Shown piece after piece: positions 1 through 61,167 of a DNA stretch of 64,000 bases; positions within the stretch are counted from its first letter, which is position 1; each line of letters starts with the position of its first letter. The stretch lies in NCBI GenBank assembly GCA_964562615.1, contig CAZLUD010000003.1, forward strand, positions 2,885 through 66,884. The letters run 5' to 3'. Source of the DNA: an uncultured Candidatus Saccharibacteria bacterium. GTDB taxonomy: Bacteria > Patescibacteriota > Minisyncoccia > Phycocordibacterales > UBA12088. Below the pieces are notes generated by a model. The model saw nothing but the letters and a program-made list of their open reading frames with translations. It searched no databases and was not told the origin of the DNA. A program made the position numbers and the translations under genes.

Positions 1-3000
1 ACCTTGCAAGCTGGTGATGCCAATCATCAAATTACGTTTGGTGATACTACAGTTTTCACGACTTGGCATAATTTTAAGTTTGATAAGAATAACGGCGGCG
101 CGACAACAATTATGACGGTGGGCACGGTAGGAAGCAGTAACGTCGGCATCGGGACGACAACACCAACAGCACCTCTTCATGTGAGTGGAGCAAGTGGATA
201 TTCAATAGCAAAATTTAAATCACAATTCAGTGTAAGTGGTGTGATTGCCTCTGATAATAGTCAAGTGTTCTTTGGTCATGATTCAGGATCTGATGGAACA
301 TGGAGTAATGGTATGGCAGCAATTAGTAGCGGTGGAGTATTTTTTAACTCGGGTGGATCAGAACGGATGCGGATTACAAGCGCCGGCTCTGTCGGCATCG
401 GCACCACCTCCCCATGGGCAAAGCTTTCCATAAAGGGAAGTGGTACCAGTACCGGCAAGGCGTTTGCAGTTTCTGACTCGTCAAATGTGACAAGGTTTGT
501 GATCAATGATAATGGCAACGTCGGCATCGGGACGGCGTCGCCTAGCTCACTTCTCCACCTCTCTGCGGGGTCAAGTGGTGCGACTGCTATTGCAAATGCA
601 CAGCTAATACTTGAGGCATCAGGTTCTCGCTATATTCAGTTTGCGCTTCCAACTGCTAGCACCGGTGGTATCTTCTTTGGTGATTCTTCTGATAACGATC
701 GGGGAGGAATCACGTATCAAAACAGTACCGCCGCAGGATTGCCCGACACGATGACATTTGTTACGAATGGAAACGCGCGGGCGGTTATAAACAGCACCGG
801 CAATGTAGGTATTGGGACTACCACCCCAGCATATAAACTTGATGTGTTTAGTAACACATCAGCGTCGGCCGCCCGCTTTACCAGTAGTAATGATGGAGGT
901 GGGGTAGGGCTACGCGTAGATACCACCGACACAAACCATGGTGTTATCACTGCCGATTTTGATACCTTGGGCAACCCTACTTTAACCGTTGATTCAGCTG
1001 GCGGTACAATCGGATATTTTCAAATGAGGGAAAGCGGGACACAAGTAATAAGGCTTGGTCAAACATTTAGCGGAGGACAAGTACTGGCGACAAAAAGCAA
1101 TTTGCAAGTAGCAATTGATGCAGATAATGATGGCACTGGGGCGTTTGAAATTGCAAAAGGTAGTTGGAATGGGCGTGTTGGTTCAGACGGAACAAGTCTA
1201 TTCAGAGTTACTAATGCTGGCAACGTCGGCATTGGGACGACGAACCCAGGGGCTAAACTTTCCGTTGCGGCACCGAGCGGAAGCAACGTTGTTGATTTTG
1301 CCCTCTATAACGACGCGGGCTCAACGCAAATCTTAAAACTATCAAGCAACAGCGGCGCGGTAGCGTCTGTTACTTCCTACGGGGATATGAACCTCGTCAC
1401 TCAAAATAGCGGAGTTCTGTACTTGAAGCCAAATGGTTCATCGATGCTTTCACTTAATCCTGTCACGGGGAATTCATCATTCACGGGCTCTGTCGGTATT
1501 GGGATTACCACACCCCTTGATAGTTTGCATTTGTTTAAAAATGAACCAGGAATTATCTTAGAAGACGATGGGTGGGGTGCGGGTACAGGTGGTATGTGGA
1601 GGATGCGTCCTGCAAACAATGATGGAAGGTTTAAAATCGAACGCAACACATCTTCGGCGAGAGATTTTGCTACGTATGTGGAGGATTTGGTGATAACAAC
1701 CGCAGGTAATGTGGGAATTGGGACGACGGCACCACTTTCTCAGCTGCAAATCAAAAATGCAACAAACCAAGAAACACAGATTGGCGGCACTGCAGGAATC
1801 TATACAAATTCAACATACTTTACCGATTTATTTAGACTTGACTCAGCTATAAACTTTAGCCGCAGTTCAGATGGTGCGTTTTTGAACTCGATTTTTGGTT
1901 ACGAAACCACTGCTCTTGCTGAGAATAATCTCGGTCTTGTTGCGCGTCATGACATTAAGTTTGTTGTTGGAGCCACAGCTGACAGAGGAATGATTATAAA
2001 AAGCGGAGGCAATGTGGGTATTGGTACTACCGCACCTGGAAATGATTTGCATATCTCAGGAACAGAATCGATCATCAGACTACAAGCAACTGCGGTAAGT
2101 GGAAAGTCATGGGATATTGTCTCTGGTGGTGGCGGGGCACACACCGCAGGAGTGTTTGCGCTTCAAGACACTACAGGTGGCACAACACCATTTAAAATAA
2201 TCAACCCCACAGCTAATGATGTGCTTGCGGTGGTGGGGAGTAGTGTCGGTATTGGAACAAGTAATCCAGGTGTAAAACTCGAAGTAAATGGTGGAAGTAG
2301 CATCGCAGCAATTCGCCTCGCAACATCTGCCCTTACTAACGGGTTCGATATTGGCTATCTCAACGGAACTTCTGACCCAGCACTCTACCTCTTTAACAGA
2401 GAAAATGGAGCAATGATTTTGAGTACAAACGCCACAGAGAGAATGCGCATCACTAGTGGTGGCAACGTCGGTATTGGTACAACAAACCCGGGACAAAGAC
2501 TTCAGGTTGGCGCGGGGGTAGTATCAGATTTTTCTGAGGCAAATATATTTGATACAGCAACTGAAGCTATATCTATCGTTGGAGATGCAGGTGGTGAAGA
2601 TGCTGCTCTTGTACTGGGTGTAACAGATGGGACAAGAAATAGTAGAGCCAAATTCTTTATCTCTGATCAAAAAGAGTGGGGATTGTGGCAAACATGGTCT
2701 TCTGGAGGAGATCAAGATTTTGTTCTTGGTATGGGAGCTGGTGGAGAAAGGTTAAGAGTCACCAGTGGGGGGAGTGTCGGTATTGGCACCTCCACACCAA
2801 CTACTGGTAAATTTGTTATCGCTGCTGGTCATAACGCAAATGCGCTTGTATTAGAGAATGTCGCCGTAGGAAAGTATTGGTCGGTGTATAACTACACCAA
2901 TAGCTCTGCGACAGATTTGCGATTCTACGAACAAAACTCAGGTGGTAATTCTTTGACCCTACAAGCAGGGGGTAATGTGGGTATAGGCACAGTAAATCCT

Positions 3001-5136
3001 ACTGCCAAACTTACAGTTGTAGGAGGTAATGTCCGAGTTGATACTAATCAAGGAGTAGAATTTGGCGGAGCAAACAACTTTATTTATGGAAACGAAACAA
3101 GTGATTTTATTGCACTTGTTACCAACAACACGGAAGCAATGCGAATGTTAAGTAACGGATATGTCGGTATTGGCACCACCTCGCCATCACAAAAACTTGA
3201 TGTTGCTGGCATTATTGCGGTAAGTGGACAGGCAGCCCTATGGTCTGATTCTTCTTATATTTATGTGGGTGATATTGCGGGAGGGGATGGATATCGAAGC
3301 TTGGTACTACGCAGTAATGATACAGAACAGATGCGTATTACCACTGCGGGTAACATTGGTATCGGCACCACCACCCCTACGGCAACAAGTAATAACCGAG
3401 CACTTTCTATCTATGGAACATGGACCTCAAGTATTGACTTGGGCGGTAACGGTGCTTATCGACACCTTACTCTAAGCACAGACGGCAGCGGAAATGGATA
3501 CCTTACAGCAAACAGTGCAAAAAGTCTCTATCTTGGATCAGACAATGCAACACGAATTACACTACACGCAAACGGTAATGTTGGCATCGGGACGACGGTG
3601 CCACAAAGTAGATTGGAGGTGATTGGCGCTGGATCAGACCAGGAAGCATTAACGTTGCGTAATGTATCAGGGGGTGGAAAGCTGGCGCTAGGTGCCAGAA
3701 CCACAACCGGAGAAGCGTTTTTGCAAGGATTAACCAATGGTGGCTCAGCTAACGCGTTACTTCTTAATCCAAACGGGGGTAATGTGGGTATTGGGACAAC
3801 AACACCTACCAGTGGCAAACTAGTTATTGCAGGTAGCGATGATCTTGTTGCGCTTGCGGTTACCAATACATCAGCTATGACCGCAAGTTTTGAACTTGGT
3901 CAGACCTTGCAAGGGGGGAACTCTATTCCATATCTTCGAACTCTTCGAGGTGGTGACAACGCCAGTTTTCGAATTTATGCGGGCGGTACCGCTCTCTCAG
4001 GTACTCCTGCATTGACAGTGCGGTATAACGGCAACATCGGCATCGGGACGACGACGCCAGGGGCGAAATTACAAGTGAACTATGATGGAGGGGCAACAGC
4101 TGCTCTCATAAGTGAAACAGTTGCGTCCTTTAGTAATACCTCTGCAACTACGGATAATGCTTACATAAGTATCCAATCAGGAAATGCGGCAGAAGCAGCA
4201 ATTGTATTTGGAGATACGGACGATGATAACCGAGGATATCTAAGATATGTAAACGGCGCGACTGATTACTTCTCGATTGCTGTTGCTGGAGAAAAAGTAA
4301 GAGTTCAGCAGGACGGCAACGTCGGCATCGGCACCACCACTCCATGGCGCACCCTCTCCGTCACCGGCACCGTCGGCTTTGATGGTCTCACCGGCTCCAC
4401 CGGAGCCGGGTCACTATGTCTCTCATCAAGCAAACAAGTGGTATACAACAGTGCATCAGACAGCTGTCTTCCATCACTAAGAGAAACAAAGCACGATATA
4501 GCAGCCCTCGCACTCTCAGCTACCGAAGTACTCTCTACCATAGAACCAGTATCATTTATATATAATGAGAGTGATGGCAGAGTCCGCTACGGCTTTATCG
4601 CAGAAGATGTCGCTGCAGTAGACCCTCACCTTGCTACCTATAACGCCTCAAGTACCATTTCTGGTATAGACGATAGAGCTATGGTGTCTCTTCTTGTGAA
4701 GGGGTTTAAGGAGGTGTGGAACGAGGTGGTGATGGTAAAAAATAGTGTGGTAGCGGTAACCAGCAGGGTAGATGAGCATGATAGAGAAATAGCAGAGCTG
4801 AAGGCGCGTATTGCTGCTCTTGAATCAACACAGGCTCCTGAAGAAGGAGAAGAAGAAACTCCTACCGACACAACACCCCCCACCATCACCATCACCGGCA
4901 ACAACCCCGCACAACTAACCGTAGGAGATAGCTATGCCGACCTAGGCGCAATTGCAATTGATGATAGTGGCACTGCAATCCTGCGCACCTACGTTAGAGG
5001 TATAGAGGTAACGGCAGTATCTATTGATACCTCAGTAGCAGGGGAGCATGCAGTGGTGTATGTCGCGACTGACCTTGCAGGCAACAGTGCGACGAGTACG
5101 AGGGCGGTGGTGGTGGAAGAGGTGATCCTTCCATAG
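1..5136 (+). CDS. Giant repeat fibre protein, 5'-truncated at the window edge (>1710 aa). It has about 18 copies of a 70-100 aa unit centred on G-N-V-G-I-G-T-T-x-P. The C-terminus carries a peptidase S74-like intramolecular chaperone (tail-fibre auto-processing) domain followed by a DUF5011/Ig-like domain
   Basis: ORF 4..5136 is open to the window start. The motif GNVGIGTT[TSAN]P recurs about 18 times. C-terminal SLRETKHDI...GFIAEDV...LLVKGFKEV fits the S74 chaperone consensus (SDxRxKxNI...GFIAQEV...LIEAIKEL). The last ~80 aa (TPPTITITGNNPAQLTVGDSYADLGAIAIDDSG) resemble DUF5011. Confidence 0.7.
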   Translation, partial: TLQAGDANHQITFGDTTVFTTWHNFKFDKNNGGATTIMTVGTVGSSNVGIGTTTPTAPLHVSGASGYSIAKFKSQFSVSGVIASDNSQVFFGHDSGSDGTWSNGMAAISSGGVFFNSGGSERMRITSAGSVGIGTTSPWAKLSIKGSGTSTGKAFAVSDSSNVTRFVINDNGNVGIGTASPSSLLHLSAGSSGATAIANAQLILEASGSRYIQFALPTASTGGIFFGDSSDNDRGGITYQNSTAAGLPDTMTFVTNGNARAVINSTGNVGIGTTTPAYKLDVFSNTSASAARFTSSNDGGGVGLRVDTTDTNHGVITADFDTLGNPTLTVDSAGGTIGYFQMRESGTQVIRLGQTFSGGQVLATKSNLQVAIDADNDGTGAFEIAKGSWNGRVGSDGTSLFRVTNAGNVGIGTTNPGAKLSVAAPSGSNVVDFALYNDAGSTQILKLSSNSGAVASVTSYGDMNLVTQNSGVLYLKPNGSSMLSLNPVTGNSSFTGSVGIGITTPLDSLHLFKNEPGIILEDDGWGAGTGGMWRMRPANNDGRFKIERNTSSARDFATYVEDLVITTAGNVGIGTTAPLSQLQIKNATNQETQIGGTAGIYTNSTYFTDLFRLDSAINFSRSSDGAFLNSIFGYETTALAENNLGLVARHDIKFVVGATADRGMIIKSGGNVGIGTTAPGNDLHISGTESIIRLQATAVSGKSWDIVSGGGGAHTAGVFALQDTTGGTTPFKIINPTANDVLAVVGSSVGIGTSNPGVKLEVNGGSSIAAIRLATSALTNGFDIGYLNGTSDPALYLFNRENGAMILSTNATERMRITSGGNVGIGTTNPGQRLQVGAGVVSDFSEANIFDTATEAISIVGDAGGEDAALVLGVTDGTRNSRAKFFISDQKEWGLWQTWSSGGDQDFVLGMGAGGERLRVTSGGSVGIGTSTPTTGKFVIAAGHNANALVLENVAVGKYWSVYNYTNSSATDLRFYEQNSGGNSLTLQAGGNVGIGTVNPTAKLTVVGGNVRVDTNQGVEFGGANNFIYGNETSDFIALVTNNTEAMRMLSNGYVGIGTTSPSQKLDVAGIIAVSGQAALWSDSSYIYVGDIAGGDGYRSLVLRSNDTEQMRITTAGNIGIGTTTPTATSNNRALSIYGTWTSSIDLGGNGAYRHLTLSTDGSGNGYLTANSAKSLYLGSDNATRITLHANGNVGIGTTVPQSRLEVIGAGSDQEALTLRNVSGGGKLALGARTTTGEAFLQGLTNGGSANALLLNPNGGNVGIGTTTPTSGKLVIAGSDDLVALAVTNTSAMTASFELGQTLQGGNSIPYLRTLRGGDNASFRIYAGGTALSGTPALTVRYNGNIGIGTTTPGAKLQVNYDGGATAALISETVASFSNTSATTDNAYISIQSGNAAEAAIVFGDTDDDNRGYLRYVNGATDYFSIAVAGEKVRVQQDGNVGIGTTTPWRTLSVTGTVGFDGLTGSTGAGSLCLSSSKQVVYNSASDSCLPSLRETKHDIAALALSATEVLSTIEPVSFIYNESDGRVRYGFIAEDVAAVDPHLATYNASSTISGIDDRAMVSLLVKGFKEVWNEVVMVKNSVVAVTSRVDEHDREIAELKARIAALESTQAPEEGEEETPTDTTPPTITITGNNPAQLTVGDSYADLGAIAIDDSGTAILRTYVRGIEVTAVSIDTSVAGEHAVVYVATDLAGNSATSTRAVVVEEVILP

Positions 5137-7631: not shown

Positions 7632-7650
7632 GTGCCCAGGACAGGACTTG
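7632..7650 (-). repeat. 19-nt direct copy of the 3' end of tRNA-Leu (T-stem 3' side plus acceptor 3' side)
   Basis: gtgcccaggacaggacttg at 7632-7650 is identical to 7827-7845 inside the tRNA. Confidence 0.7.
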
Positions 7651-7698: not shown

Positions 7699-7827
7699 AC
7701 TCTCGACCCCGCCTCGCCGACAAGCACTCGCGTTGCTCGTCTTGTATACCGGCTGCGGCTTTCAAGTCCTTTCCTGTAGCCAAAACAATAATCGCCGAAT
7801 GCATACGCATCCGGCTCTTTTGTTTTG

Positions 7828-7911
7828 TGCCCAGGACAGGACTTGAACCTGCACAGCCTTGCGGCCACTACCACCTCAAGGTAGCGTGTATACCAATTTC
7901 ACCACCTGGGC
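7828..7911 (-). tRNA. tRNA-Leu (anticodon GAG), class II with a long variable arm and no encoded CCA
   Basis: The minus-strand sequence GCCCAGGTGGTGAAATTGGTATACACGCTACCTTGAGGTGGTAG...GCAGGTTCAAGTCCTGTCCTGGGCA folds as a cloverleaf. It has a 7-bp acceptor stem, a TTCAAGT T-loop and the anticodon loop cTTGAGgt. Confidence 0.8.
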
Positions 7912-8022: not shown

Positions 8023-9174
8023 ATGCATATAGAACAAAAGAAATGGACGAAACAACATGGATGGGTTATGCACACCAAAGAACCGCTACCAACACCACCG
8101 TCACTTGTGTTGGTGTTTGGCGGCAATGATGCACTAAAGAACACCACTCTCTTTGAAGAGATTAGGTCGTGGTATCCATCAGCAAAAATAGTAAGCGCAT
8201 CTACTGCGGGGGAGATAATCGATACCGAGGTATCTGATGATGCGTTGGTACTTTCTGCAATCGCATTTGAAAAAACAACAATACAGTGTGTAGAGGCAAC
8301 AATAGACTCATCAGAGCATAGTGAAGAGGTAGGAAAGACTCTCGCACAAGCACTCCCTAAAGAAGGTCTTGTCCACGTAATGATATTTTCAGACGGGTTG
8401 TTTGTTAACGGTACTGCACTTGTGAAGGGTTTGTTGGCAGAACTACCGCAGAGCGTATCGGTAACCGGAGGGTTGGTGGGTGATGGCCCACGATTTAAAG
8501 AAACCATGGTAGGGCTAGACACCATGGCGGCACAAAAGAAACTCGTATGCATTGGTTTTTATGGGCAATCAATTAAGGTAGGATACGGCTCTTTGGGCGG
8601 ATGGGATTCATTTGGCGTATCTCGCACGATTACCAAGGCACAAGGTAATGTGTTGTATGAATTGGATGATAAACCAGCGCTCGTACTCTATAAAGAATAT
8701 CTTGGAGATCTAGCAAAAGATTTGCCAGCAAGTGGGCTTCTGTTTCCGCTTAGTCTAAAAGTCACCACCGACCTTGGTGTGGAGGTAGAGGTGGTGCGTA
8801 CGGTGCTTGGTGTTGATGAGGCCACACAATCAGTTACCTTTGCGGGGGACATGCCGGTAGGTGTTGTTGCTCGTTTTATGAAGGCTAATTTTGATCGCCT
8901 CATTGATGGCGCATCTGGTGCTGCAAGTATGAGCACGGTATCACTTGGCGAGGGAAAGGCAGAGCTTGCGATTTTGGTAAGTTGCATTGGTAGAAAATTG
9001 GTGTTGAAGGACAGGGTAGAGGATGAGACCGAAGCGGTACGAGAAATTGTTGGTGCAAATGCGCACATGATAGGGTTTTATTCTTATGGCGAGATTAGTC
9101 CAACCACCCCAACCGAGCGACAGTGTCAGCTACACAATCAGACCATGACCATTACCACCCTGAGGGAAGTATAG
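8023..9174 (+). CDS. FIST-domain sensor protein (FIST_N plus FIST_C)
   Basis: 383 aa. The C-terminal HMIGFYSYGEISP matches the FIST_C consensus. The N-terminal half is organised like a FIST_N domain. Confidence 0.7.
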   Translation: MHIEQKKWTKQHGWVMHTKEPLPTPPSLVLVFGGNDALKNTTLFEEIRSWYPSAKIVSASTAGEIIDTEVSDDALVLSAIAFEKTTIQCVEATIDSSEHSEEVGKTLAQALPKEGLVHVMIFSDGLFVNGTALVKGLLAELPQSVSVTGGLVGDGPRFKETMVGLDTMAAQKKLVCIGFYGQSIKVGYGSLGGWDSFGVSRTITKAQGNVLYELDDKPALVLYKEYLGDLAKDLPASGLLFPLSLKVTTDLGVEVEVVRTVLGVDEATQSVTFAGDMPVGVVARFMKANFDRLIDGASGAASMSTVSLGEGKAELAILVSCIGRKLVLKDRVEDETEAVREIVGANAHMIGFYSYGEISPTTPTERQCQLHNQTMTITTLREV

Positions 9175-9176
9175 CT

Positions 9177-10223
9177 ATGCATCATCTCCTAGAGCGCCAA
9201 TTAAAAAAGTACGTAGATGCCAAGGTACAGATTCCTCAGGAGTGCATGCAACTACTTGAGGCGGTAAGTGCCACCTACGAAGGGTACGATCAAGACAGGC
9301 GACTACTCGACCACTCATTTGATATCAGCTCAAAAGAATTTTCTGAGCTACACACTAAAGTCCTTACGCTTCTCTCTGAGCTACAAGCTGAAAAGGAGAG
9401 TGTTGAAAATAAGGTGGTAGAACGTACGCATGAGCTTCATCAAAAAGTAGAAGAGCTTAATGCAAGTAATCAATTACTCTCACAACAAGAAGCGCTGTTG
9501 ACTGAAGCGAACACCAGACTATTGGAGCTCGATAAGGTAAAGTCTGAATTTATTTCTGTTGCGGCACATCAACTACGCACACCACTCTCTGCTATTAAGT
9601 GGGCTCTCTCGCTTATGTGCGATGATTCTTCTGAAAACCTCACCATTGATCAGCGAAGCCTAATTCTTAAAGCATACGCAAGTACCGAGCGAACCATAAA
9701 CCTTATCAATAAAATGCTCGTGGTTACTCGAATAGAATCAGGAAAGCTCGAGTACGAACTTGCCCTTGTTCATATTGAGCATGTTATCGAATCGGTGATT
9801 TTAGATTTTGCTGGGTACGTGGCGCAGCATCAGGTAACACTTCATTTTGAGCCGCCACAAGAAGTGTTGCCGCCAGTAAAAATTGACTCAGAAAAAATAC
9901 GCGCCGTACTACAGAATTTAATAGAAAACGCACTCTCGTATACCAAAGCAGGGGGGAGTGTGGTGGTGCGAGCTCGTCATGAAGATGATCGAATTATGGT
10001 GTCAGTTAGCGATACAGGGATTGGTATACCCGAACATCAAAAAACCGCCATATTTACAAAGTTTTTCAGAGCAGATAACGCGCTCAAGGCTAAAACAGAT
10101 GGAACAGGACTCGGGCTATTTGTTGCAAAAAATATAATAGATAAACACGGTGGAGCAATCGCATTTGAAAGTGAAGAAGGCGAGGGTACCACTTTTTATT
10201 TTTCGCTACCAATTCCACGCTAG
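9177..10223 (+). CDS. cytoplasmic sensor histidine kinase: coiled coil, HisKA and HATPase_c domains, no transmembrane segment
   Basis: H-box SVAAHQLRTPLSAIK. N-box QNLIENALSYT. G-boxes DTGIGIP and GTGLGLFVAKNI. The ATG at 9177 has a GAGGGA RBS. An in-frame ATG at 9123 would overlap the FIST gene. Confidence 0.8.
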   Translation: MHHLLERQLKKYVDAKVQIPQECMQLLEAVSATYEGYDQDRRLLDHSFDISSKEFSELHTKVLTLLSELQAEKESVENKVVERTHELHQKVEELNASNQLLSQQEALLTEANTRLLELDKVKSEFISVAAHQLRTPLSAIKWALSLMCDDSSENLTIDQRSLILKAYASTERTINLINKMLVVTRIESGKLEYELALVHIEHVIESVILDFAGYVAQHQVTLHFEPPQEVLPPVKIDSEKIRAVLQNLIENALSYTKAGGSVVVRARHEDDRIMVSVSDTGIGIPEHQKTAIFTKFFRADNALKAKTDGTGLGLFVAKNIIDKHGGAIAFESEEGEGTTFYFSLPIPR

Positions 10224-10291
10224 TCACATAATGACTCTCACAGTGTGTGGGTAATTGATGGTATACTTTCACAAAGCGACATAACAACACT

Positions 10292-11089
10292 ATGAAAAAA
10301 ATCCTTATCATTGAAGATGAAGAAGTGCTCGGTGAACTGCTTCGTGATCACCTTGTGAACGAAGGATACGAGACCTATTGGGAAAAAGACGGTGAAGCAG
10401 GAATCGATACGCTAAAGAAGATACACCCAGATGTGGTATTGCTTGATATGGTGATGCCAAAAATGAATGGATACGAAACATTAGAAAAAATTCGCGGTGA
10501 TGAAGAAATAAAAGAAGTGCCTGTTATTGTTATTTCTAATTCGGGACAACCAGTTGAGATACGACACATTTTAGATATGGGGGTGAAGGATTACATTATC
10601 AAGGCGCAGTTTAGTCCTGCAGAAGTGCTTGAAAAGGTGCACAAGTATATAACGCCTAACGCAGAAGCAAAAAGCACCACCACCTCATCATTGCTTTCAA
10701 ATCCAGTAGCACGATTGCTCATTGTTGAGGATGACCCGTTTCTTTCATCTATTGCAGCAATGCACCTAAAAAAGAAAGGTTGCTCTGTCACGGTAGCGGT
10801 TGATGGAGAAAACGCTCTCGCATTACTTGAGAAGGAGATACCAGATCTTATACTTCTTGATATCATCATGCCCGGCATAAGTGGTATTGATGTCTTAAAG
10901 AAAATAAAAGCAGATTCGCGGTACAAGGATGTATCAGTCATTATGTTTTCTAACTTAGGGCAAGAGCATGAAATTGAGGAGTGCACCAACGCAGGAGCAG
11001 AAGATTTTTTGATAAAAGCTATGGTTACCCCACAAGAAGTTCTTGATCGAGTTCTCGCCATTTTAAAGAGAAAAGGGAAGCTACAATAG
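10292..11089 (+). CDS. response regulator with two tandem receiver (REC) domains and no output domain
   Basis: Two copies of the pattern ILIIEDE...LLDMVMP...KDYIIKA and LLIVEDD...LLDIIMP...EDFLIKA. Confidence 0.85.
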   Translation: MKKILIIEDEEVLGELLRDHLVNEGYETYWEKDGEAGIDTLKKIHPDVVLLDMVMPKMNGYETLEKIRGDEEIKEVPVIVISNSGQPVEIRHILDMGVKDYIIKAQFSPAEVLEKVHKYITPNAEAKSTTTSSLLSNPVARLLIVEDDPFLSSIAAMHLKKKGCSVTVAVDGENALALLEKEIPDLILLDIIMPGISGIDVLKKIKADSRYKDVSVIMFSNLGQEHEIEECTNAGAEDFLIKAMVTPQEVLDRVLAILKRKGKLQ

Positions 11090-11199
11090 CTCTATTGTTG
11101 TGGCGCTTTGACAGATAATGATATTTCTATACTCTCTGCGGTAGAGCCTCCCCGTGGTGGGTGGGGCATTGTGGCAAATAGCCACATGATGGAGTAGTC

Positions 11200-13131
11200 A
11201 TGACAGAGGGTAGAAATGATTTCGCGGCACTTATCGAGCTCGATCGCCAGGAACGGCAGAAGAAGCACTGGCGTGGCACGCTCCTTGACTATCTGGATCT
11301 CGTCAAGGCGAACCCACGGCTCGCCGATTTCTCGCACAAGCGCATGTACGACATGATCATCGATCGCGGCACGGAGAGTGTCGACGTCGAGGCCGACCCG
11401 CGCGCCAAGCGTGTCTTCGGTGATCAGAGCCCGAAGACGTACGGGTTCTTCAAGGACGAGTTCTTCGGCATGGAACGCACGCTCGACAAGATCGTGCGCT
11501 ACTTCCACTCGTCCGCCATGGGCGGCGAGGAAGCTCGCCAAGTCCTCTATCTGATGGGGCCGGTCGGCTCGGGAAAGAGCTCTCTCGTTGACCGCCTCAA
11601 GCGTGGCCTCGAGGATCTCGACCCGATCTATGTGATCGAAGGCTCTCCGAACTACTCAAGCCCGCTCTGCCTTATCCCGCGCCACTTACGCGGCGCGTTT
11701 GAGGAGATGCTGGGCGTGCGAATAGAGGGTGACATCGACCCGATCACCAGACATCGCCTGATGAACGAGTTCGGCGGTCAGTACGAGAAGATGCCGGTTT
11801 GCACGATGTCCTTCTCGATACGAGCCAGGAAGGGTGTCGGTGTCGTCCCCCCGGTCGACCCGAACAACCAGGACACCTCGGTCCTGATCGGCTCGGAGGA
11901 TATCAGCAAGCTCGACCGCTTCTCAGAGGGTGATCCGCGGGTATTGGAGCTGAGTGGCGCCTTCAACGTCGGTAATCGCGGCATGGTGGAGTTCATCGAG
12001 GTCTTCAAGAACGAGACCGAATATCTTCACACCATGATCACGGCGACGCAGGAGAAGATGGTTCCTGCACCTGGTCGCCATGGCACCATCTACGTCGACA
12101 CCGTGATCGTCGCACACAGCAACGAGGCGGAGTGGCAACGATTCAAGGCCGACCACACCAACGAGGCGATTCTTGATCGTATCGTCGTCGTCAAGGTGCC
12201 CTACAATCTCCGCCTCTCGGAGGAGGTGAAGATCTATCGGAAGTTCCTCAAGCGTTCCCGCTTCGACCTCAAGATCTCGCCGCATACGCTCGAGATCGCG
12301 TCGATGTTCGCGATCCTGACACGGCTCGAGCCAACGGGAAAATGCGATCTCCTCACCAAGCTCAAGATCTACAATGGTGAGGAGGTCCTCGAAAAGGGTA
12401 GACCAAAGAAGATCACGGCGCACGAGCTTCGTGACGACATCAAGCGAGAGGGGCTCTTTGGCATCAGCACGCGCTTCGTCATGAAGGCCCTCGACACGGC
12501 CCTCACGCAGAACGGTGGGTCTATTCATCCCATCAATGTGCGCGAGGCGCTCATTGGCATGGTCAAGGAGACCGACCTGCCGGAGGACACGAAACGGCAG
12601 CATCTGGAGTTCCTCCAGGACACGCTCCACAAGGTCTACCTCGAGCTGCTAGAGAAGGACATCACCAAGGCGTTTGTCTTTAGCTTCAAGGATCAAGCGG
12701 AGACACTCTTCCAGAACTACCTCGACAATGCCGAGGCCTACGTGACCAAGACCAAGGTCAAGGATCACGTGACCAAGGAGGAGATGCAGCCCGACGAGGG
12801 GTTCCTCAAATCCATCGAGGAGCAGATCGCGATTATCGGCCCGGCTGCCGACGGCTTTCGCCAAGAGGTGATCGCATACCTCTGGTCCGGCATGCGTCGT
12901 GGTGAGACGCTGAGCTACTCCGCCTACGAGCCCTTGAAAGAGGCCATCGAAAAGAAGCTGATGAACTCGGTCCGTGACATCAGCCGCATCATCACCAAGT
13001 CGCGCACCCGTGACGAGGAGCAGCGGCAAAAGTACTCGGCGATGGTCGAGAATCTCCTCGAGCAGGGGTACAACGAGGAGAGCATCGACACAGTGCTGAA
13101 GTATGCCGCTAACCATCTCTGGAAGGACTGA
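11200..13131 (+). CDS. prkA: PrkA-family serine protein kinase (YeaG-like, AAA+ N-domain)
   Basis: 643 aa and collinear with E. coli YeaG. Walker A is LMGPVGSGKSSL. The gene is markedly GC-rich compared with its flanks. Confidence 0.85.
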   Translation: MTEGRNDFAALIELDRQERQKKHWRGTLLDYLDLVKANPRLADFSHKRMYDMIIDRGTESVDVEADPRAKRVFGDQSPKTYGFFKDEFFGMERTLDKIVRYFHSSAMGGEEARQVLYLMGPVGSGKSSLVDRLKRGLEDLDPIYVIEGSPNYSSPLCLIPRHLRGAFEEMLGVRIEGDIDPITRHRLMNEFGGQYEKMPVCTMSFSIRARKGVGVVPPVDPNNQDTSVLIGSEDISKLDRFSEGDPRVLELSGAFNVGNRGMVEFIEVFKNETEYLHTMITATQEKMVPAPGRHGTIYVDTVIVAHSNEAEWQRFKADHTNEAILDRIVVVKVPYNLRLSEEVKIYRKFLKRSRFDLKISPHTLEIASMFAILTRLEPTGKCDLLTKLKIYNGEEVLEKGRPKKITAHELRDDIKREGLFGISTRFVMKALDTALTQNGGSIHPINVREALIGMVKETDLPEDTKRQHLEFLQDTLHKVYLELLEKDITKAFVFSFKDQAETLFQNYLDNAEAYVTKTKVKDHVTKEEMQPDEGFLKSIEEQIAIIGPAADGFRQEVIAYLWSGMRRGETLSYSAYEPLKEAIEKKLMNSVRDISRIITKSRTRDEEQRQKYSAMVENLLEQGYNEESIDTVLKYAANHLWKD

Positions 13132-13330
13132 TTGATGATCAGTCCTTTCCAACAACAACAATTTTTTTATAGATTATTGAGACGTGAAAAGTCTCGATGG
13201 TCAGGGCGGGGTATAAAAATACCTCGCTAGCAAACTGAGCCATACAAGGAAACTTGTATGGCTCACATTCTTGTCATTTTTTTATAAAGATATATGCTCA
13301 AAAAAGTTGAACCACATGTGGGGGTTGCAC

Positions 13331-14533
13331 ATGACTACGGTCTTTCGACCTTACAACGAGACGGAAGCACTGCGATCTGATCGCAGTGCAGGTGATCGCA
13401 AGCGCCATCGCGAGAAGCTGCGGCGCTCGCTTAAGGACAACATTGCCGACATCATCGCCGAGGAGAGCATCATCGGCCGAGATCGAGACAAGGTGATCAA
13501 GGTGCCGATCCGTGGTGTGAAGGAGTATCGCTTCACCTTCGGCAACAATTCAGGCAGTGTCGGTGTTGGCGATGGGAATACAGAAGTTGGGGATATCGTC
13601 GGCCCTGCCGGACAGGGCGAGAAGGGTCAAGGGCCGGCCAGCAATCATCCGGGTCAGGATATCTACGAGACGGAGATCACGATCGACGAGCTGATCGACA
13701 TCATGTTCGAGGATCTGGAACTCCCCGATATGGAGCGGAAGATCCTCAAGGAGGCCCTCGCTGAGCGGACGAGTAAGCGCAAGGGTTACCGCAAGGCCGG
13801 CATTCGTGTGCATCTCGATCGCAAACGTACCATCAAGTCGAAGATTAGGCGGCGGATCGCTCAGGGCCTGCCACTCGTTGATAGTGAGGACGAGACCGAT
13901 TTGCCCGAACATGATGAACGCGAGACCAGCTTTCCTTTTCGCAAGGAGGATCTGACTTACCGCCGTCTGGTCGACGAGCCGCGCGAGGAAAGCAACGCGG
14001 TCGTCATCTGCATCATGGACACGTCGGGCTCGATGGACCGCTTGAAGAAGTATCTGGCCCGAAGCTTCTTCTTTCTGCTCTACCAATTCGTCCGCACGCG
14101 TTATGATCAGGTGAAGATCGTCTTTGTTGCACATCAAAGCGAAGCCGCCGAGGTGACGGAGGACGAGTTCTTTCACAAGGGCGAGTCCGGCGGCACGCTG
14201 ATATCGTCGGGCTACAAGAAGGCGCTCGAGGTAATAGAGCAGCGATTTCACCCGGAGCATTGGAATATCTATGCATTCCACTGCTCGGATGGCGATAATT
14301 TTGGGAGTGACAACGAGGAGACGCTTGCGTGCGCCCAGCAGCTCTGCGACGTCACCAACCTCTTCGGCTATGGCGAAATCAAGCCGATTGGCGGCAACTA
14401 CCATGAGAGCTCGATGCTCGAGCGCTTCCGTCAGATGTGCCGCGACAATTTCCATACCGCGCTGATCAAGCGACGCGAGGATATCTGGCCGGCCTTCGCC
14501 AACCTCATGAAGAAGGATAAAACTAATTACTAA
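13331..14533 (+). CDS. yeaH: YeaH/YhbH family protein (DUF444, vWA-like)
   Basis: Gly-rich GQGEKGQGPASN segment. ELIDIMFEDLELPDM matches YeaH. The vWA-like segment is IMDTSGSM. The GC shift begins at the ATG at 13331; the ORF track's 13271 start lies in an AT-rich spacer. Confidence 0.8.
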   Translation: MTTVFRPYNETEALRSDRSAGDRKRHREKLRRSLKDNIADIIAEESIIGRDRDKVIKVPIRGVKEYRFTFGNNSGSVGVGDGNTEVGDIVGPAGQGEKGQGPASNHPGQDIYETEITIDELIDIMFEDLELPDMERKILKEALAERTSKRKGYRKAGIRVHLDRKRTIKSKIRRRIAQGLPLVDSEDETDLPEHDERETSFPFRKEDLTYRRLVDEPREESNAVVICIMDTSGSMDRLKKYLARSFFFLLYQFVRTRYDQVKIVFVAHQSEAAEVTEDEFFHKGESGGTLISSGYKKALEVIEQRFHPEHWNIYAFHCSDGDNFGSDNEETLACAQQLCDVTNLFGYGEIKPIGGNYHESSMLERFRQMCRDNFHTALIKRREDIWPAFANLMKKDKTNY

Positions 14534-14550
14534 TTGAGGGCAATGCCTCG

Positions 14551-14584
14551 AAGCCGTGCGTGGTACGCACGGCTTTTCTTTTTA
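14551..14584 (+). terminator. rho-independent terminator after yeaH
   Basis: aaGCCGTGCGtggtaCGCACGGCttttcttttt. Confidence 0.7.
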
Positions 14585-14648
14585 TATTTTTGCTATACAG
14601 TGCCGAAAGAAGCCCACTCATGATGAGTGGGTAAAAAGGAGAGTTGTA

Positions 14649-16049
14649 ATGTCTGAATGGAGCTTAGAGGACCTCGAGCGATGGGACGAGCGGATCCAGG
14701 TGAAGGTGGCCAACTACGGGCTCGATTGCTATCCTCAGGAGTTTGAGGTCTGCGATCAGAATGCCATGCTCGGCTACATGGCCTATCACGGCATGCCATC
14801 GCACTACCCGCACTGGTCCTATGGCAAGGCATACGAGCAACAGAAGACCATGTACGACTACGGGGTCACGGGCCTCCCGTATGAGCTGGTCATCAACTCC
14901 GACCCTTGCCTTGCCTACCTCATGCGCGACAACAGTCTGTGCCTACAGATCCTGACGATCGCTCATGTGTACGGGCACAACGACTTCTTCAAGAACAACT
15001 TCACCTTCACCAGCGCCACGCGCGCCAGCGAGACGATTGCATCCTTCAAGACCAGGGCCGATCGGATCCGCCGCTACATGAAGGATCCATCGATTGGCGC
15101 TGATGCGGTCGAGCGCTTCCTCGATGCGGCGCATGCCCTTGCATTCAACCGCACGCGGAACCTGGCGATCAAGAAGCTCGATGCCGAGGGTCAACGCGAG
15201 CGGCTGCGGGATCTTGCTGAGCCAAGGCGCGATCCGTTTGCTGCGATCCACAAAACCGCGGTGCATAACCCGCCCGATCTCTCTTGCTTCCCACTAGAAC
15301 CCGATCAGGACATTCTCTTGTTCGTCCGCGACAACAACAAGGATCTGGCCGCCTGGCAGCGGGACATCCTCACCATCGTAGACGAGGAGACCTGCTACTT
15401 CCTCCCTCAGATTGATACAAAGATCATGAACGAGGGCTGGGCCAGTTTCTGGCACCACAAGCTCATGAACGCGATCGATCTACCGCCCGAGATCCACATG
15501 GAGTTTCTGGTCCGCCACAACCAGGTGGTCTGCCCACATCCAGGCGGCCTCAATCCGTACCATGTTGGCTTTGTCATCTGGTCTGCCCTCGAAAAACGCT
15601 TCGGCGGGGTCGAGTCGAAGGACTGCGTCGCGAATCTCATGCAGATCCGCGAGGCGGAGCGCGATGTCTCGTTCCTGCGTCGTTTTCTCACGCCTGAACT
15701 GATGCATGAACTTGACCTCTTTGCCTACAGACCTCAAGGTGAACACCTCGTCGTGACTGAGGTGAGCGATAAAGATGATTGGGAGCATGTTAAGAACCAG
15801 CTACTCGCGCAGATCGGCTCGAACAGCTTCCCTGTCATCAAGATCGTTGATGCAAATAGTGAGGGGAAGGGTATCCTTCATCTCACTCACGAGCATGATG
15901 GCCGAGATCTCGATGTTACATCTGCAATAAAGACTCTGGTCCATCTTGAGACTTTGTGGGGTAGGGATGTCAGTCTTTTGACATGCATCGGTGCGTCTAA
16001 GAAGAAGATAAAAGTACACAGAGGAGATTCCGAAGTCAAAAACGCTTAG
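14649..16049 (+). CDS. spoVR: SpoVR family protein (YcgB-like)
   Basis: LDCYPQEFEV...MPSHYPHWSYGKAY...LAYLMRDN...IAHVYGHNDFFKNN matches the SpoVR/YcgB family. An AAGGAG RBS precedes the ATG at 14649. Confidence 0.85.
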   Translation: MSEWSLEDLERWDERIQVKVANYGLDCYPQEFEVCDQNAMLGYMAYHGMPSHYPHWSYGKAYEQQKTMYDYGVTGLPYELVINSDPCLAYLMRDNSLCLQILTIAHVYGHNDFFKNNFTFTSATRASETIASFKTRADRIRRYMKDPSIGADAVERFLDAAHALAFNRTRNLAIKKLDAEGQRERLRDLAEPRRDPFAAIHKTAVHNPPDLSCFPLEPDQDILLFVRDNNKDLAAWQRDILTIVDEETCYFLPQIDTKIMNEGWASFWHHKLMNAIDLPPEIHMEFLVRHNQVVCPHPGGLNPYHVGFVIWSALEKRFGGVESKDCVANLMQIREAERDVSFLRRFLTPELMHELDLFAYRPQGEHLVVTEVSDKDDWEHVKNQLLAQIGSNSFPVIKIVDANSEGKGILHLTHEHDGRDLDVTSAIKTLVHLETLWGRDVSLLTCIGASKKKIKVHRGDSEVKNA

Positions 16050-16054
16050 GTGGC

Positions 16055-16089
16055 CGCCCGCTCTTGTGAGCGGGCGTTTCCTTTTTGTC
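16055..16089 (+). terminator. rho-independent terminator after spoVR
   Basis: CGCCCGCTCttgtGAGCGGGCGtttcctttttgt. Confidence 0.75.
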
Positions 16090-16144
16090 TGGAGTCTGCT
16101 ATAAATCATAAGCGGTAGATGGTTGTGTATATAGTATTTTGCAT

Positions 16145-16217
16145 GGCGACTATGGTGTAATGGTCAACACAGGGGTTTGTGGAGCCCCTGATCTGGGTTC
16201 GATTCCCAGTAGTCGCC
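16145..16217 (+). tRNA. tRNA-His (anticodon GTG) with a genomically encoded G-1
   Basis: G-GCGACTA...anticodon loop tTTGTGGa...TTCGATTCC...TAGTCGC-C. The 7-bp acceptor stem is perfect. The extra 5' G pairs with the discriminator C73. Confidence 0.8.
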
Positions 16218-16270
16218 CAAATCGGCCGACCGAATACGCGAATGCGTTTCGGTCGTTGCCGTTTGGAGAG
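16200..16270 (+). repeat. 71-bp direct repeat, copy 1: the tRNA-His T-arm and acceptor 3' end plus 50 nt of downstream hairpin
   Basis: cgattcccagtagtcgcccaaatcggccgaccgaatacgcgaatgcgtttcggtcgttgccgtttggagag is identical to 16385-16455. Confidence 0.85.
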
Positions 16271-16384: not shown

Positions 16385-16455
16385 CGATTCCCAGTAGTCG
16401 CCCAAATCGGCCGACCGAATACGCGAATGCGTTTCGGTCGTTGCCGTTTGGAGAG
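16385..16455 (+). repeat. 71-bp direct repeat, copy 2: a partial tRNA-His 3' end plus flank, with no 5' half
   Basis: Identical to 16200-16270. It is preceded by gcgggg, not by a tRNA body. Confidence 0.85.
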
Positions 16456-18573: not shown

Positions 18574-18625
18574 TCTATACACAGCGCACACATAGAGCAT
18601 TACGATTGTTTGCTATACTGTGTGT

Positions 18626-19900
18626 ATGAAAAAAAGCGTATATTACCTATCCTTTATAGGAGTGTGTGTTATTGCAATAACGACACTTGTTCCTTTTACA
18701 TTTGGTCAAACAACCATTAGTGATATCCAGCGATCAATTCAACAAAAAGAGCAAGAGATACTTATTTTGCAGGAGCAATTAAAAGCCCTACGAGAAACAC
18801 TCTCAAAGGCGCAAAAGGATCAATCTACACAACTCTCTACTGCAACAGGAGGAAGTCCCTCTGGGCTTGTACTCATGCGTGAGTACACCGCCTTCACGCG
18901 AGCAATTGGATACGGCTCAACCGGTGAGGATGTAAAGAGTCTTCAGCTTATTCTCAATGAACTGGGGTACTATCCAGAGGCGGTGTTTAGCGGCTACTTT
19001 GGCGAGATGTCTGTTACCGCACTAAAACGATTTCAGTCAGCAAAGGGAATCGTCTCTAGTGGAGATGCAAGTACTACTGGGTATGGCATGCTTGGACCTT
19101 CTACAAGAAAGGCGATAAATGCGATTATTTCTGGATCAGTTGTACCAGGCATAGTGAGCAACGATCCGGTGAAGGATACTTCAACAAGTGGCAGTTCAAG
19201 TAGTAGTAAGGATGAAGGAAACACCTCATTTTATGCAGGCAAGGTCATTCTAAAGAAGGCGAGTGCTAGCAATGCAACAGCAAAGGATGAATATATTGAA
19301 ATAGAGATAGATGATAAGGCTGGATCAGATGTCATTCTTGCAGGATGGAAGGTACAGAGCACTATCACTAACAATGTGATTACGCTTGATACGGTATCGC
19401 CATTGTTTAGATTTGGTAGGTCTGGCACTACAGATGAGCTTAGACTGAAACCAAAGGACACGCTCACCATAGTGACGGGAATGTCACCACTTACGCAAAA
19501 GAGCTTTAGAGAAAACAAGTGTATGGGCTATTTGCGCCACTACTACTCGTTTAGCCCTTCAATTAGCTCATCATGTCCAAAACCAGAAGATGAATTAGAG
19601 GCGTACGGCAAAATCCCACTCACTGATGATGCATGCAGAACATATGTATCAAGACTTTCGTCATGCAAAGCACCACTGTCATCAGAAATTCCAACCACCG
19701 TATCACTTGCGTGTAGGTATTTTGTTGAAAACAACATCAACTACAATGCGTGTATCGACAAGCACCTCTCAGATGCAGATTTTTGGAAAGACGAGTGGCG
19801 CATATATCTAAATCGTTCAGATGAATTATGGAGAAAGAACAGAGAAGAGCTGGTGTTGCTTGATCAGTTTGGAAATCAGGTTGATAAGGTAACGTACTAA
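18626..19900 (+). CDS. secreted protein with a coiled coil, a peptidoglycan-binding (PG_binding_1) domain, a lamin-tail-like (LTD) domain and a Cys-rich C-terminus
   Basis: Signal-like N-terminus. The PG-binding segment is GSTGEDVKSLQLILNELGYY...ALKRFQ. DEYIEIEIDDKAGSDVILAGWKV resembles the LTD signature. Confidence 0.55.
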   Translation: MKKSVYYLSFIGVCVIAITTLVPFTFGQTTISDIQRSIQQKEQEILILQEQLKALRETLSKAQKDQSTQLSTATGGSPSGLVLMREYTAFTRAIGYGSTGEDVKSLQLILNELGYYPEAVFSGYFGEMSVTALKRFQSAKGIVSSGDASTTGYGMLGPSTRKAINAIISGSVVPGIVSNDPVKDTSTSGSSSSSKDEGNTSFYAGKVILKKASASNATAKDEYIEIEIDDKAGSDVILAGWKVQSTITNNVITLDTVSPLFRFGRSGTTDELRLKPKDTLTIVTGMSPLTQKSFRENKCMGYLRHYYSFSPSISSSCPKPEDELEAYGKIPLTDDACRTYVSRLSSCKAPLSSEIPTTVSLACRYFVENNINYNACIDKHLSDADFWKDEWRIYLNRSDELWRKNREELVLLDQFGNQVDKVTY

Positions 19901-59734: not shown

Positions 59735-59832
59735 ATTGAGAGCTATATTGACGTATACTTTTTTTAATTGTACCGTTGTCACGGGTAAGGTACTTACCCA
59801 GAACCTTAACATCCACACGAAAGGAAGCTTCG

Positions 59833-61149: not shown

Positions 61150-61167
61150 TCAACTTGGAGTAGAGAG

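Follow-up and report, generated by a model that had tools for sequence, protein, structure and literature searches.

The 64,000-nucleotide stretch analysed here (contig CAZLUD010000003.1 of an uncultured Candidatus Saccharibacteria bacterium; hereafter the window) carries, at ~11090–16100 on the forward strand, an island of three adjacent, co-directional genes with an AT-rich leader, two intergenic spacers and a closing hairpin. The genes encode PrkA, an AAA+ ATPase and putative serine kinase (11200–13131, +; 643 aa), a DUF444 or YhbH-type protein resembling von Willebrand factor A (vWA) proteins (13331–14533, +; 400 aa), and SpoVR (14649–16049, +; 466 aa). The island is flanked by transfer RNA (tRNA) genes and lies on the 5′ side of its right-hand neighbour, tRNA-His(GTG), which was called by both ARAGORN and Rfam. 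To the left lie a FIST sensor, a histidine kinase and a double-REC response regulator (8023–11089, +; assigned by Pfam), which have host composition (GC content at third codon positions, GC3, of 0.37–0.41), and beyond them tRNA-Leu(GAG) on the minus strand. The distances reported in an earlier note on this DNA are correct: the response-regulator stop codon ends at 11089, 110 bp before the prkA ATG, and the two tRNA genes occupy 7827–7911 (tRNA-Leu) and 16146–16218 (tRNA-His). Sequence comparisons make it very probable that the trio was acquired from a high-GC Geminicoccaceae-type alphaproteobacterium by the ancestor of a small Saccharibacteria group.

Each of the three genes has strong Pfam matches, in agreement with the identities first proposed for them. 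In PrkA, the AAA_PrkA domain (PF08298) spans residues 27–381 (5.8e-145) and the PrkA C-domain (PF06798) residues 385–635 (4.1e-77), and the Walker A motif GPVGSGKS at residue 120 is intact. The protein keeps 299 of the 301 residues that are invariant in 116 close Geminicoccaceae-type homologues and 88 of the 89 that are also invariant in Thermomicrobium and phage outgroups; seven fixed residues are private to the Saccharibacteria copies. Residues 20–638 align with the solved structure PDB 9xip (E 1e-84), which is deposited together with 9xiq and 9xir among PrkA-family structures and on which a literature search found no paper. The DUF444 protein is covered by PF04285 over residues 15–395 of 400 (E 9.6e-123 to 1.2e-122); its C-terminal half contains DTSGS, a DxSxS motif of the metal ion-dependent adhesion site (MIDAS) type, and its match to VWA_CoxE is weak (E 0.043). 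SpoVR matches PF04293 (3.9e-136) and PF24755 (SpoVR_C; 1.3e-11). Scores against the NCBIfam models stay below the cut-offs throughout, widely for PrkA (418.6 bits against the YeaG equivalog PRK15455, cut-off 576) and SpoVR (298 against the equivalog PRK11767, cut-off 679), and narrowly for the DUF444 protein, the best model of which is spore_yhbH (TIGR02877; 453.2 bits, cut-off 467.95). The trio belongs to the known PrkA-YhbH-SpoVR family, as a distinct subfamily of it, and is no new kind of system. TTG or GTG starts had been implied for the second and third genes; ATG 13331 (DUF444) and ATG 14649 (spoVR) are likelier, each having a ribosome-binding site (RBS; GGGGG or AAGGAG) upstream and agreeing with the gene calls on an independent contig. 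At the 3′ end of spoVR (15700–16049), GC3 falls from ~0.8 to 0.42–0.54 over the final ~100 codons, and no alignment to donor-like SpoVR proteins extends into the last ~20 residues; this C-terminal tail seems to be faster-evolving or partly replaced.

The island differs sharply in composition from its surroundings. Against a GC content of 45.6% for the window as a whole (64 kb), 1-kb intervals reach 54–57% GC at 11–16 kb and 41–47% on either side. At 200-bp resolution, the rise lies between 11.1 and 11.3 kb and the fall between 15.7 and 16.1 kb, with sharp AT-rich dips inside the island at 13.1–13.3 kb (38.5% GC at 13100–13299) and 14.5–14.7 kb. Windowed GC therefore confirms the step that the earlier note had placed at each end of the island (up at ~11.1–11.2 kb and down at ~15.7–16.1 kb), and the tetranucleotide check that it proposed returned 11001–16000 as the top outlier of the 64 kb (robust z 11.9). 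Its estimate of 58–60% GC for the coding sequences holds for prkA (58.1%), not for the DUF444 gene (54.9%) or spoVR (54.6%); the adjoining genes have 40.5–46.5%. The long antisense open reading frames that it listed at 11923–12630, 12649–13161 and 13550–14455 all exist. The signal lies almost wholly at third codon positions: GC3 is 0.80 in prkA, 0.72 in the DUF444 gene and 0.71 in spoVR, against 0.27–0.48 in nearly all other open reading frames of the window (~0.38 in host genes), and fourfold-degenerate sites carry 76% G+C in the island against 36% in the host pool. By Karlin codon bias, the trio (0.64–0.86) lies 4–6 standard deviations (SD) off the host mean of 0.26 (SD 0.095).

The nearest relatives of the island proteins are found in the Geminicoccaceae. 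Outside a few near-identical sequences, the best matches of PrkA are 81–87% identical, and those with names belong to Geminicoccaceae or to Benzoatithermus (Geminicoccales, Alphaproteobacteria); the cluster at 87% includes NCBI proteins of Geminicoccaceae metagenome-assembled genomes (MAGs), one of them on a 3.76-Mb contig. All other PrkA/YeaG proteins compared, whether rhizobial, sphingomonad, enterobacterial, Bacillus, Thermomicrobium, plasmid or phage, are only 31–40% identical. For SpoVR, the best matches are 70–72% identical, are named Geminicoccaceae and lie on the contigs of the best PrkA matches (91,718; 15,653; 16,092; and 223,434 bp), from which it follows that at least prkA and spoVR came together; in the same donor-like loci the DUF444 protein is ~75% identical. 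These contigs have 67–70% GC, TctABC and PutA neighbours and a tightly packed trio. The donor search suggested earlier for each protein, run here for PrkA and SpoVR, thus points to Geminicoccaceae in both cases, and the PrkA tree agrees. In this neighbour-joining tree (120 PrkA sequences, two outgroups, 200 bootstraps), the four Saccharibacteria sequences are monophyletic in 200/200 bootstraps; their clade groups with P0005–P0010, which include the Geminicoccaceae cluster, in 148/200 and is never (0/200) placed as sister to all remaining sequences. Nesting inside a Geminicoccaceae-type clade indicates that the direction of transfer was into Saccharibacteria. A phage or plasmid source was considered and rejected, as such copies are only 31–40% identical, compared with 87% for chromosomal Geminicoccaceae.

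Side by side with the Geminicoccaceae operon (P0008 cluster, MCS6876927.1, BCX18075.1; L003–L005), the window has the same three genes in the same order, with matching protein lengths (643/~400/467 aa) and identities of 86–87% for PrkA, ~75% for DUF444 and 71–72% for SpoVR. Adjacent and co-directional prkA-DUF444-spoVR order is also found in Thermomicrobium and in phage RsoM2USA. The Geminicoccaceae operon has GC-rich spacers of 15–51 bp or a 4-bp overlap, GC3 of 0.88–0.93 and a position beside TctABC/PutA; unlike it, the window operon has GC3 of 0.71–0.80, a new AT-rich leader and hairpin-rich spacers of 199 and 115 bp.

The same trio is present in related Saccharibacteria. When species-representative genomes were scanned with the upstream FIST protein, the best match was L006 (CAYPBQ010000005.1, a 63.6-kb contig of an uncultured Candidatus Saccharibacteria), and other close matches were to Saccharibacteria/Patescibacteria MAGs. 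L006 is syntenic with the window over 12 genes: the L19 gene, tRNA-Leu, FIST, the histidine kinase, the response regulator, the trio, tRNA-His and five more. This synteny and the affiliations of the FIST relatives bear out the view that the host belongs to the candidate phyla radiation (CPR). In the sister species (L002/L006), the trio is found at this locus too, equally aberrant in composition, and tRNA-His is again its right-hand neighbour; the same junctions recur in four independent assemblies from different runs. The earlier note had held that the trio at the same locus, with similar composition, in related genomes would speak for vertical inheritance; in form this is what is found, and it only dates the event, without turning the trio into vertically transmitted CPR heritage.

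A third lineage, L171, comes from a different sample and has a 94.5% identical PrkA, a 229-bp hairpin-rich spacer and the start of a DUF444 gene. Where the window has the response-regulator gene upstream of prkA, L171 has the 3′ portion of tRNA-Leu(GAG), which lies on the prkA strand and is identical to the window tRNA-Leu at 67/68 positions; it is followed by its conserved 3′ hairpin and T-tract, and then, directly upstream of prkA, by a leader homologous to window 11090–11199. All three lineages keep the tRNA-Leu, the 3′ hairpin and GATTATTGTTTTG up to the point where the sequences diverge, and the window island border CTATTGTTGTGG (11092–11103) still resembles the tRNA-Leu T-tract GATTATTGTTTTG. 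Shared derived sites favour the topology ((window, L006), L171), with 36 against 8 and 5 for the alternatives. Because the trio occurs in at least three Saccharibacteria lineages with two left junctions, the transfer must be older than first assumed, and because the shared leader is absent from donor-like loci, the leader belongs to the island and the remodelled operon has a single origin. The ancestral site would have been directly 3′ of tRNA-Leu(GAG) and 5′ of tRNA-His(GTG), and in the window lineage one inversion, of tRNA-Leu and the FIST-HK-RR block (FIST, histidine kinase and response regulator), may have put the module between tRNA-Leu and the island. A search for an att repeat of tRNA-Leu at the right border found none.

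The tRNA-Leu junction of L171 makes the adjacency of FIST-HK-RR to the trio secondary, and the module is not part of the transferred DNA. Among FIST loci from many phyla, the trio stands beside FIST in only 1 of 80, and seven other Saccharibacteria/Patescibacteria loci have FIST-HK-RR without the trio; synteny is not conserved there, and unrelated genes lie downstream of the module, including a PIF1 helicase and a class I tRNA synthetase. Conserved functional coupling of trio and module was accordingly rejected, on the 1/80 count and the absence of the module from that position in L171. As regards the module itself, the FIST protein has full-length matches of 47–55% identity in very many phyla (Acidobacteriota, Chloroflexota, Bacteroidota, Nitrospirota and others), the contexts of the module vary within Saccharibacteria and are often beside tRNA genes, and its response regulator consists of two receiver domains with no output domain.

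The non-coding parts of the island have the composition of the host rather than that of the donor. The AT-rich leader (11090–11199, +) contains TTGACA/TATACT-like boxes that may act as a promoter, two small hairpins and a GGAG RBS; it is ~95% conserved between the window and L006, its homologue is recognisable in L171, no counterpart lies upstream of donor-like prkA genes, and its fold is not significant (z −1.46). Spacer 1 (13132–13330, +; 199 bp, AT-rich) holds three tandem hairpins with a T-run after the last (terminator-like site at 13236–13265), a promoter-like site (13271–13298) and an RBS. Its fold is stable (minimum free energy −53.1 kcal/mol, z −8.0), and each of the three hairpins differs between the window and L006 by a compensatory double change that preserves its pairing; the equivalent in donor-like loci is only 15–36 bp long. 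Spacer 2 (14534–14648, +; 115 bp; fold z −5.4) has a terminator-like hairpin and T-run (14550–14576), a second hairpin and an AAGGAG RBS. In L006, its hairpin stands at the same position, followed by the same T-run, with an entirely different sequence, and donor-like loci have 51 GC-rich bp or a 4-bp overlap at this place. Downstream of spoVR, a closing terminator-like hairpin and T-run (16055–16085, +; site called at 16055–16076; fold z −3.4) consists of a 9-bp stem with eight G–C pairs followed by TTTCCTTTTT, and is kept in L006 with base changes in the stem. The AT-rich spacers with good terminators and RBSs described in the earlier note are borne out in so far as a hairpin and T-run follow each stop codon; the raw count of terminator-like sites is not above chance (6 observed in 10–17.5 kb against 5.7 expected in shuffles), so that support comes from the placement and stability of the hairpins and not from their number. 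An Rfam search of leader and spacers gave no match even at E ≤ 1. With a stable hairpin and T-run after each gene and a promoter-like site in spacer 1, transcription may be segmented or attenuated, and both the terminator or attenuator and the start signals are probably separate for every gene. By sequence comparison, the intergenic regions are remodelled relative to the compact donor-type operon.

These features suggest that a compact prkA-yhbH(DUF444)-spoVR operon was taken up by a Saccharibacteria ancestor and then domesticated by gaining a host-like AT-rich leader, while the near-absent donor spacers grew to 199 and 115 bp of AT-rich sequence with hairpins, a T-run and a good RBS. The coding sequences are decaying towards AT. 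Taking two donor-like copies, where these agree, as the ancestral state at fourfold sites, polarised changes from GC to AT and from AT to GC number 33:1 in the window, 27:2 in L006 and 13:2 in L171. For prkA, GC3 descends from 0.91–0.92 in donor-like copies through 0.88 in L171 and 0.84 in L006 to 0.80 in the window; across the island genes it is 0.88–0.93 in donor-like copies, 0.81–0.88 in L171 and 0.71–0.84 in the window and L006. A class-by-class count puts the GC-to-AT flux of the island between the window and L006 at ~60% of the host-gene-rate prediction. The proportion of synonymous differences (pS) between the two is 0.38 for prkA, 0.49–0.54 for the other island genes and 0.60–0.62 for flanking host genes. 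At fourfold sites of prkA, L171 differs from the window as much as donor-like copies do. Mosaic recombination with donor DNA was rejected, as GC3 is uniform along prkA and the DUF444 gene, with an SD equal to the binomial expectation. The trio is under strong purifying selection: the ratio of nonsynonymous to synonymous change (dN/dS) between the window and L006 is 0.029 for prkA and 0.10 for both the DUF444 gene and spoVR, the same range as in flanking host genes.

The function of the trio can be approached through its better-studied relatives. In six bacteria, the three genes are tightest in co-fitness with one another and were proposed to form one signalling pathway (bioRxiv 10.1101/072470). 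In E. coli, YeaG supports survival in prolonged nitrogen starvation (PMC4664914); in Rhizobium etli, prkA heads a three-gene, (p)ppGpp-dependent stress operon (PMC3188799); and in B. anthracis, sporulation and the tolerance of osmotic stress both require PrkA, an AAA+ protein (PMC13001217). By analogy with these systems, the three proteins would form one stress-signalling unit, most plausibly a growth-arrest or starvation-survival module for an obligate epibiont short of nutrients or of a host. PrkA, an AAA+ ring ATPase with a kinase-like C-domain, would be its ATP-driven remodeller, working with the vWA/MIDAS protein YhbH and with SpoVR. An AAA+ ATPase with a vWA partner resembles the MoxR-vWA systems.

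The likeness to E. coli yeaGH/ycgB and Bacillus prkA-yhbH-spoVR drawn in the earlier note is right as to families, and the window proteins are nearer to the Bacillus-type PrkA/YhbH than to YeaG/YeaH. E. coli yeaG-yeaH and ycgB, of the nitrogen-starvation and RpoS regulons, represent the same three families and one functional unit (bioRxiv 10.1101/072470; PMC4664914), but there the genes are split over two operons, and the window PrkA is ~33–35% identical to the YeaG type. With Bacillus prkA-yhbH and spoVR, linked to sporulation and osmotic stress, the trio shares its domain architectures; the window DUF444 protein scores best to the NCBIfam YhbH model, and PrkA, ~40% identical to Bacillus PrkA, is slightly nearer to it than to the rhizobial or enterobacterial type, although the scores stay below the equivalog cut-offs, narrowly for YhbH and widely for PrkA and SpoVR. 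Saccharibacteria are not known to form endospores, and B. subtilis is not known to have spoVR in one operon with the other two genes. Control by NtrC/sigma-54 or by RpoS would not be expected in the genome of a Saccharibacteria member. Phages such as the Ralstonia jumbo phage RsoM2USA (ORF30–28), Thermus phages and huge uncultured phages carry the trio as a block, which shows that it is transferable as a unit, but their copies are only 31–34% identical to those of the window, and the window island has no phage genes around it; the mention of Saccharibacteria in the jumbo-phage paper concerns an unrelated GatB match. With classical tRNA-linked islands the locus shares foreign composition, tRNA borders and patchy presence among lineages, and it differs from them in having neither an integrase nor a bracketing att repeat, in lying 5′ of tRNA-His and in comprising one operon of 5 kb.

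Composition, Geminicoccaceae-specific identity, nested phylogeny and directional GC-to-AT decay agree on horizontal acquisition, as first proposed for this locus. Sharp GC steps at both ends, and samples that Geminicoccaceae and Saccharibacteria may share, would suit a Geminicoccaceae fragment misjoined to a Saccharibacteria contig during assembly or binning, yet that account is effectively refuted already and its probability is negligible: the junctions are the same in four independent assemblies from different runs, the island is at least 13% (PrkA) and 28% (SpoVR) away from every Geminicoccaceae-type protein found, the leader and spacers are AT-rich and host-like, GC3 is intermediate and decaying, and the copies have diverged along with their flanks. 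It is also highly unlikely that the trio is old CPR/Saccharibacteria heritage whose high GC3 is held by selection. Its locus and composition are indeed shared by the sister species, a third lineage has it as well, and GC3 stays high even though host genes of the window and L006 differ at ~50% of fourfold sites; against this, the Saccharibacteria clade is shallow, nested among Geminicoccaceae-type sequences and basal in 0/200 bootstraps, PrkA keeps 87% amino-acid identity across phyla compared with 31–40% to other PrkA subfamilies, the seven other Saccharibacteria/Patescibacteria FIST loci lack the trio beside the module, and synonymous change is strongly directional (33:1 from GC to AT). Just as improbable is delivery by a mobile element, with the trio as phage or plasmid cargo or as an anti-phage defence module. 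PrkA-DUF444-SpoVR is present in jumbo and Thermus phages, PHROG has a family for each of the three proteins and many megaplasmids carry the trio, but those copies are 31–40% identical as against 87% for Geminicoccaceae, PADLOC gave no match, and no integrase, relaxase or phage gene lies beside the island.

More than one transfer deserves greater weight than these and is still unlikely. L171 and the window/L006 pair could hold separate captures from closely related GC-rich donors, or the remodelled island could have spread among Saccharibacteria by a route such as natural transformation, which has been reported in Saccharibacteria (PMC10633639), at a tRNA-flanked hot spot. Insertions and duplications recur on the 3′ sides of both tRNA-His and tRNA-Leu. 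The island has two left junctions (the response-regulator gene or tRNA-Leu), G↔C interchanges exceed GC-to-AT changes on deep branches, which a period in a GC-rich genome would lead one to expect, GC3 of 0.88 in L171 is near donor values, and PrkA pS between the window and L006 is 0.38 as against 0.61 for flanking genes. However, one inversion can account for the two junctions, the clade is recovered in 200/200 bootstraps with 7 private residues, and all three copies have in common a derived AT-rich leader, expanded spacers and a conserved motif before the DUF444 RBS, none of which occurs in donor-like loci. Monophyly and the shared derived leader and spacers argue against separate captures from donors; they do not bear in the same way on secondary spread.

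Several results count against a single acquisition from a Geminicoccaceae-type donor followed by decay and service in starvation survival. The donor is named from MAG labels only, and the nearest sequences are still 13% different. G↔C changes on the two deep branches of the Saccharibacteria clade number 17 and 12, more than those from GC to AT (8 and 6), and prkA of L171 is barely ameliorated (GC3 0.88) yet differs from the window at 55% of fourfold sites; neither the G↔C excess nor the low pS of prkA follows from simple neutral amelioration, and secondary spread among Saccharibacteria or weak selection on synonymous sites may lie behind them. No empty site was found: a scan of JGI metagenomes with the response-regulator protein gave only relatives of 24–46% identity, and the contigs of two relatives of the C39 peptidase (L168 and L169; 77% and 70% identical) end at or just before tRNA-His, so that no empty site is visible in them. 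The genes adjoining the island encode no integrase, transposase, relaxase or phage protein by Pfam domains, and no direct repeat bracketing 11090–16100 was found. A literature search found no prior report linking PrkA to Patescibacteria/CPR, CPR genomes not being surveyed systematically. On the functional side, the kinase and protease activities of B. anthracis PrkA are negligible in vitro and the activity of PrkA is disputed (PMC13001217), and the role in growth arrest is entirely inferred.

The usual hosts of Saccharibacteria are Actinobacteria. A partnership of another kind, in which this subclade lives on or near Geminicoccaceae-type Alphaproteobacteria and repeatedly takes up their DNA, is a speculative extension of the proposed transfer that we consider improbable. 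It would explain both the "fresh" GC3 of 0.71–0.88 despite near-saturated synonymous divergence of the recipients and the dominance of G↔C changes on deep branches within the clade. If it were true, the PrkA module would be a host-derived starvation or dormancy switch for host-free periods.

Other features of the window were recorded alongside the island. The 3′ ends of both tRNA-His and tRNA-Leu are duplicated ~185–195 bp downstream, by a perfect repeat of 71 nt (19 nt of tRNA plus 52 nt; 16200–16270 and 16385–16455) for tRNA-His and by a 19-nt repeat on the minus strand (7632–7650 and 7827–7845) for tRNA-Leu. The GC-rich fillers between the repeat copies are mutually paralogous, with shared blocks and hairpins; they are shorter in L006, the tRNA-His filler is missing from the 99%-identical strain L172, and L169 has about three such repeat copies after tRNA-His. 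Rfam gave no match to the repeats or fillers, and an insertion element or att-scar family at tRNA 3′ ends and a tRNA-linked small RNA are the candidates for what they are. In L168 (1–870), a ParE-like toxin-antitoxin pair lies between a tRNA-His 3′ fragment and a homologue of hyp231, where the window has only the repeat, which adds to the evidence for an insertion hot spot 3′ of tRNA-His in this lineage.

A milder GC-rich segment at 59776–62478 (+) contains two adjacent class II synthetases (GC 52–53.5%, GC3 0.56 and 0.63, codon-bias z 1.8 and 2.6), one of which passes the cut-off for non-discriminating aspartate-tRNA(Asn) ligase while the other resembles asparaginyl-tRNA synthetase and lies under all cut-offs; this pair may be another, older transfer. 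The isoleucyl-tRNA synthetase (35418–38876, +; 1152 aa) has a His_Phos_1 domain inserted at ~505–662, between the synthetase halves. In 1.84 billion cluster representatives, dozens of 50%-identity clusters of ~1130–1200 aa match in one stretch and thus have the insertion, and other clusters of ~970–1000 aa match in two stretches and lack it, so that the fusion is a widespread variant and not unique to the window genome. A protein of at least 1710 aa (4–5136, +), possibly cut at the left edge of the window, combines a Peptidase_S74 endosialidase-chaperone domain with an Ig-like domain, and two others, of 1184 aa (54655–58209, +) and 426 aa (18620–19900, +), have peptidoglycan-binding domains and unusually high GC at second codon positions. 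These large or repetitive predicted surface proteins are plausibly part of an epibiont attachment apparatus.

Taken as an event, the acquisition of the trio is an ordinary small island of horizontal gene transfer, with an unusual recipient and an unusually clear donor and domestication record. Genomes of CPR/Patescibacteria are shaped mainly by gene loss, and for this reason well-documented gains tell what epibionts need. The island offers a natural example of the domestication of a foreign operon in a reduced genome and a usable time series of amelioration, in which GC3 passes from 0.9 in the donor to 0.88, 0.84 and 0.80. A small, phylogenetically isolated trio in a minimal background could also ease the isolation of its biochemical role, and its retention suggests selection in Saccharibacteria for survival under deprivation of nutrients or host.

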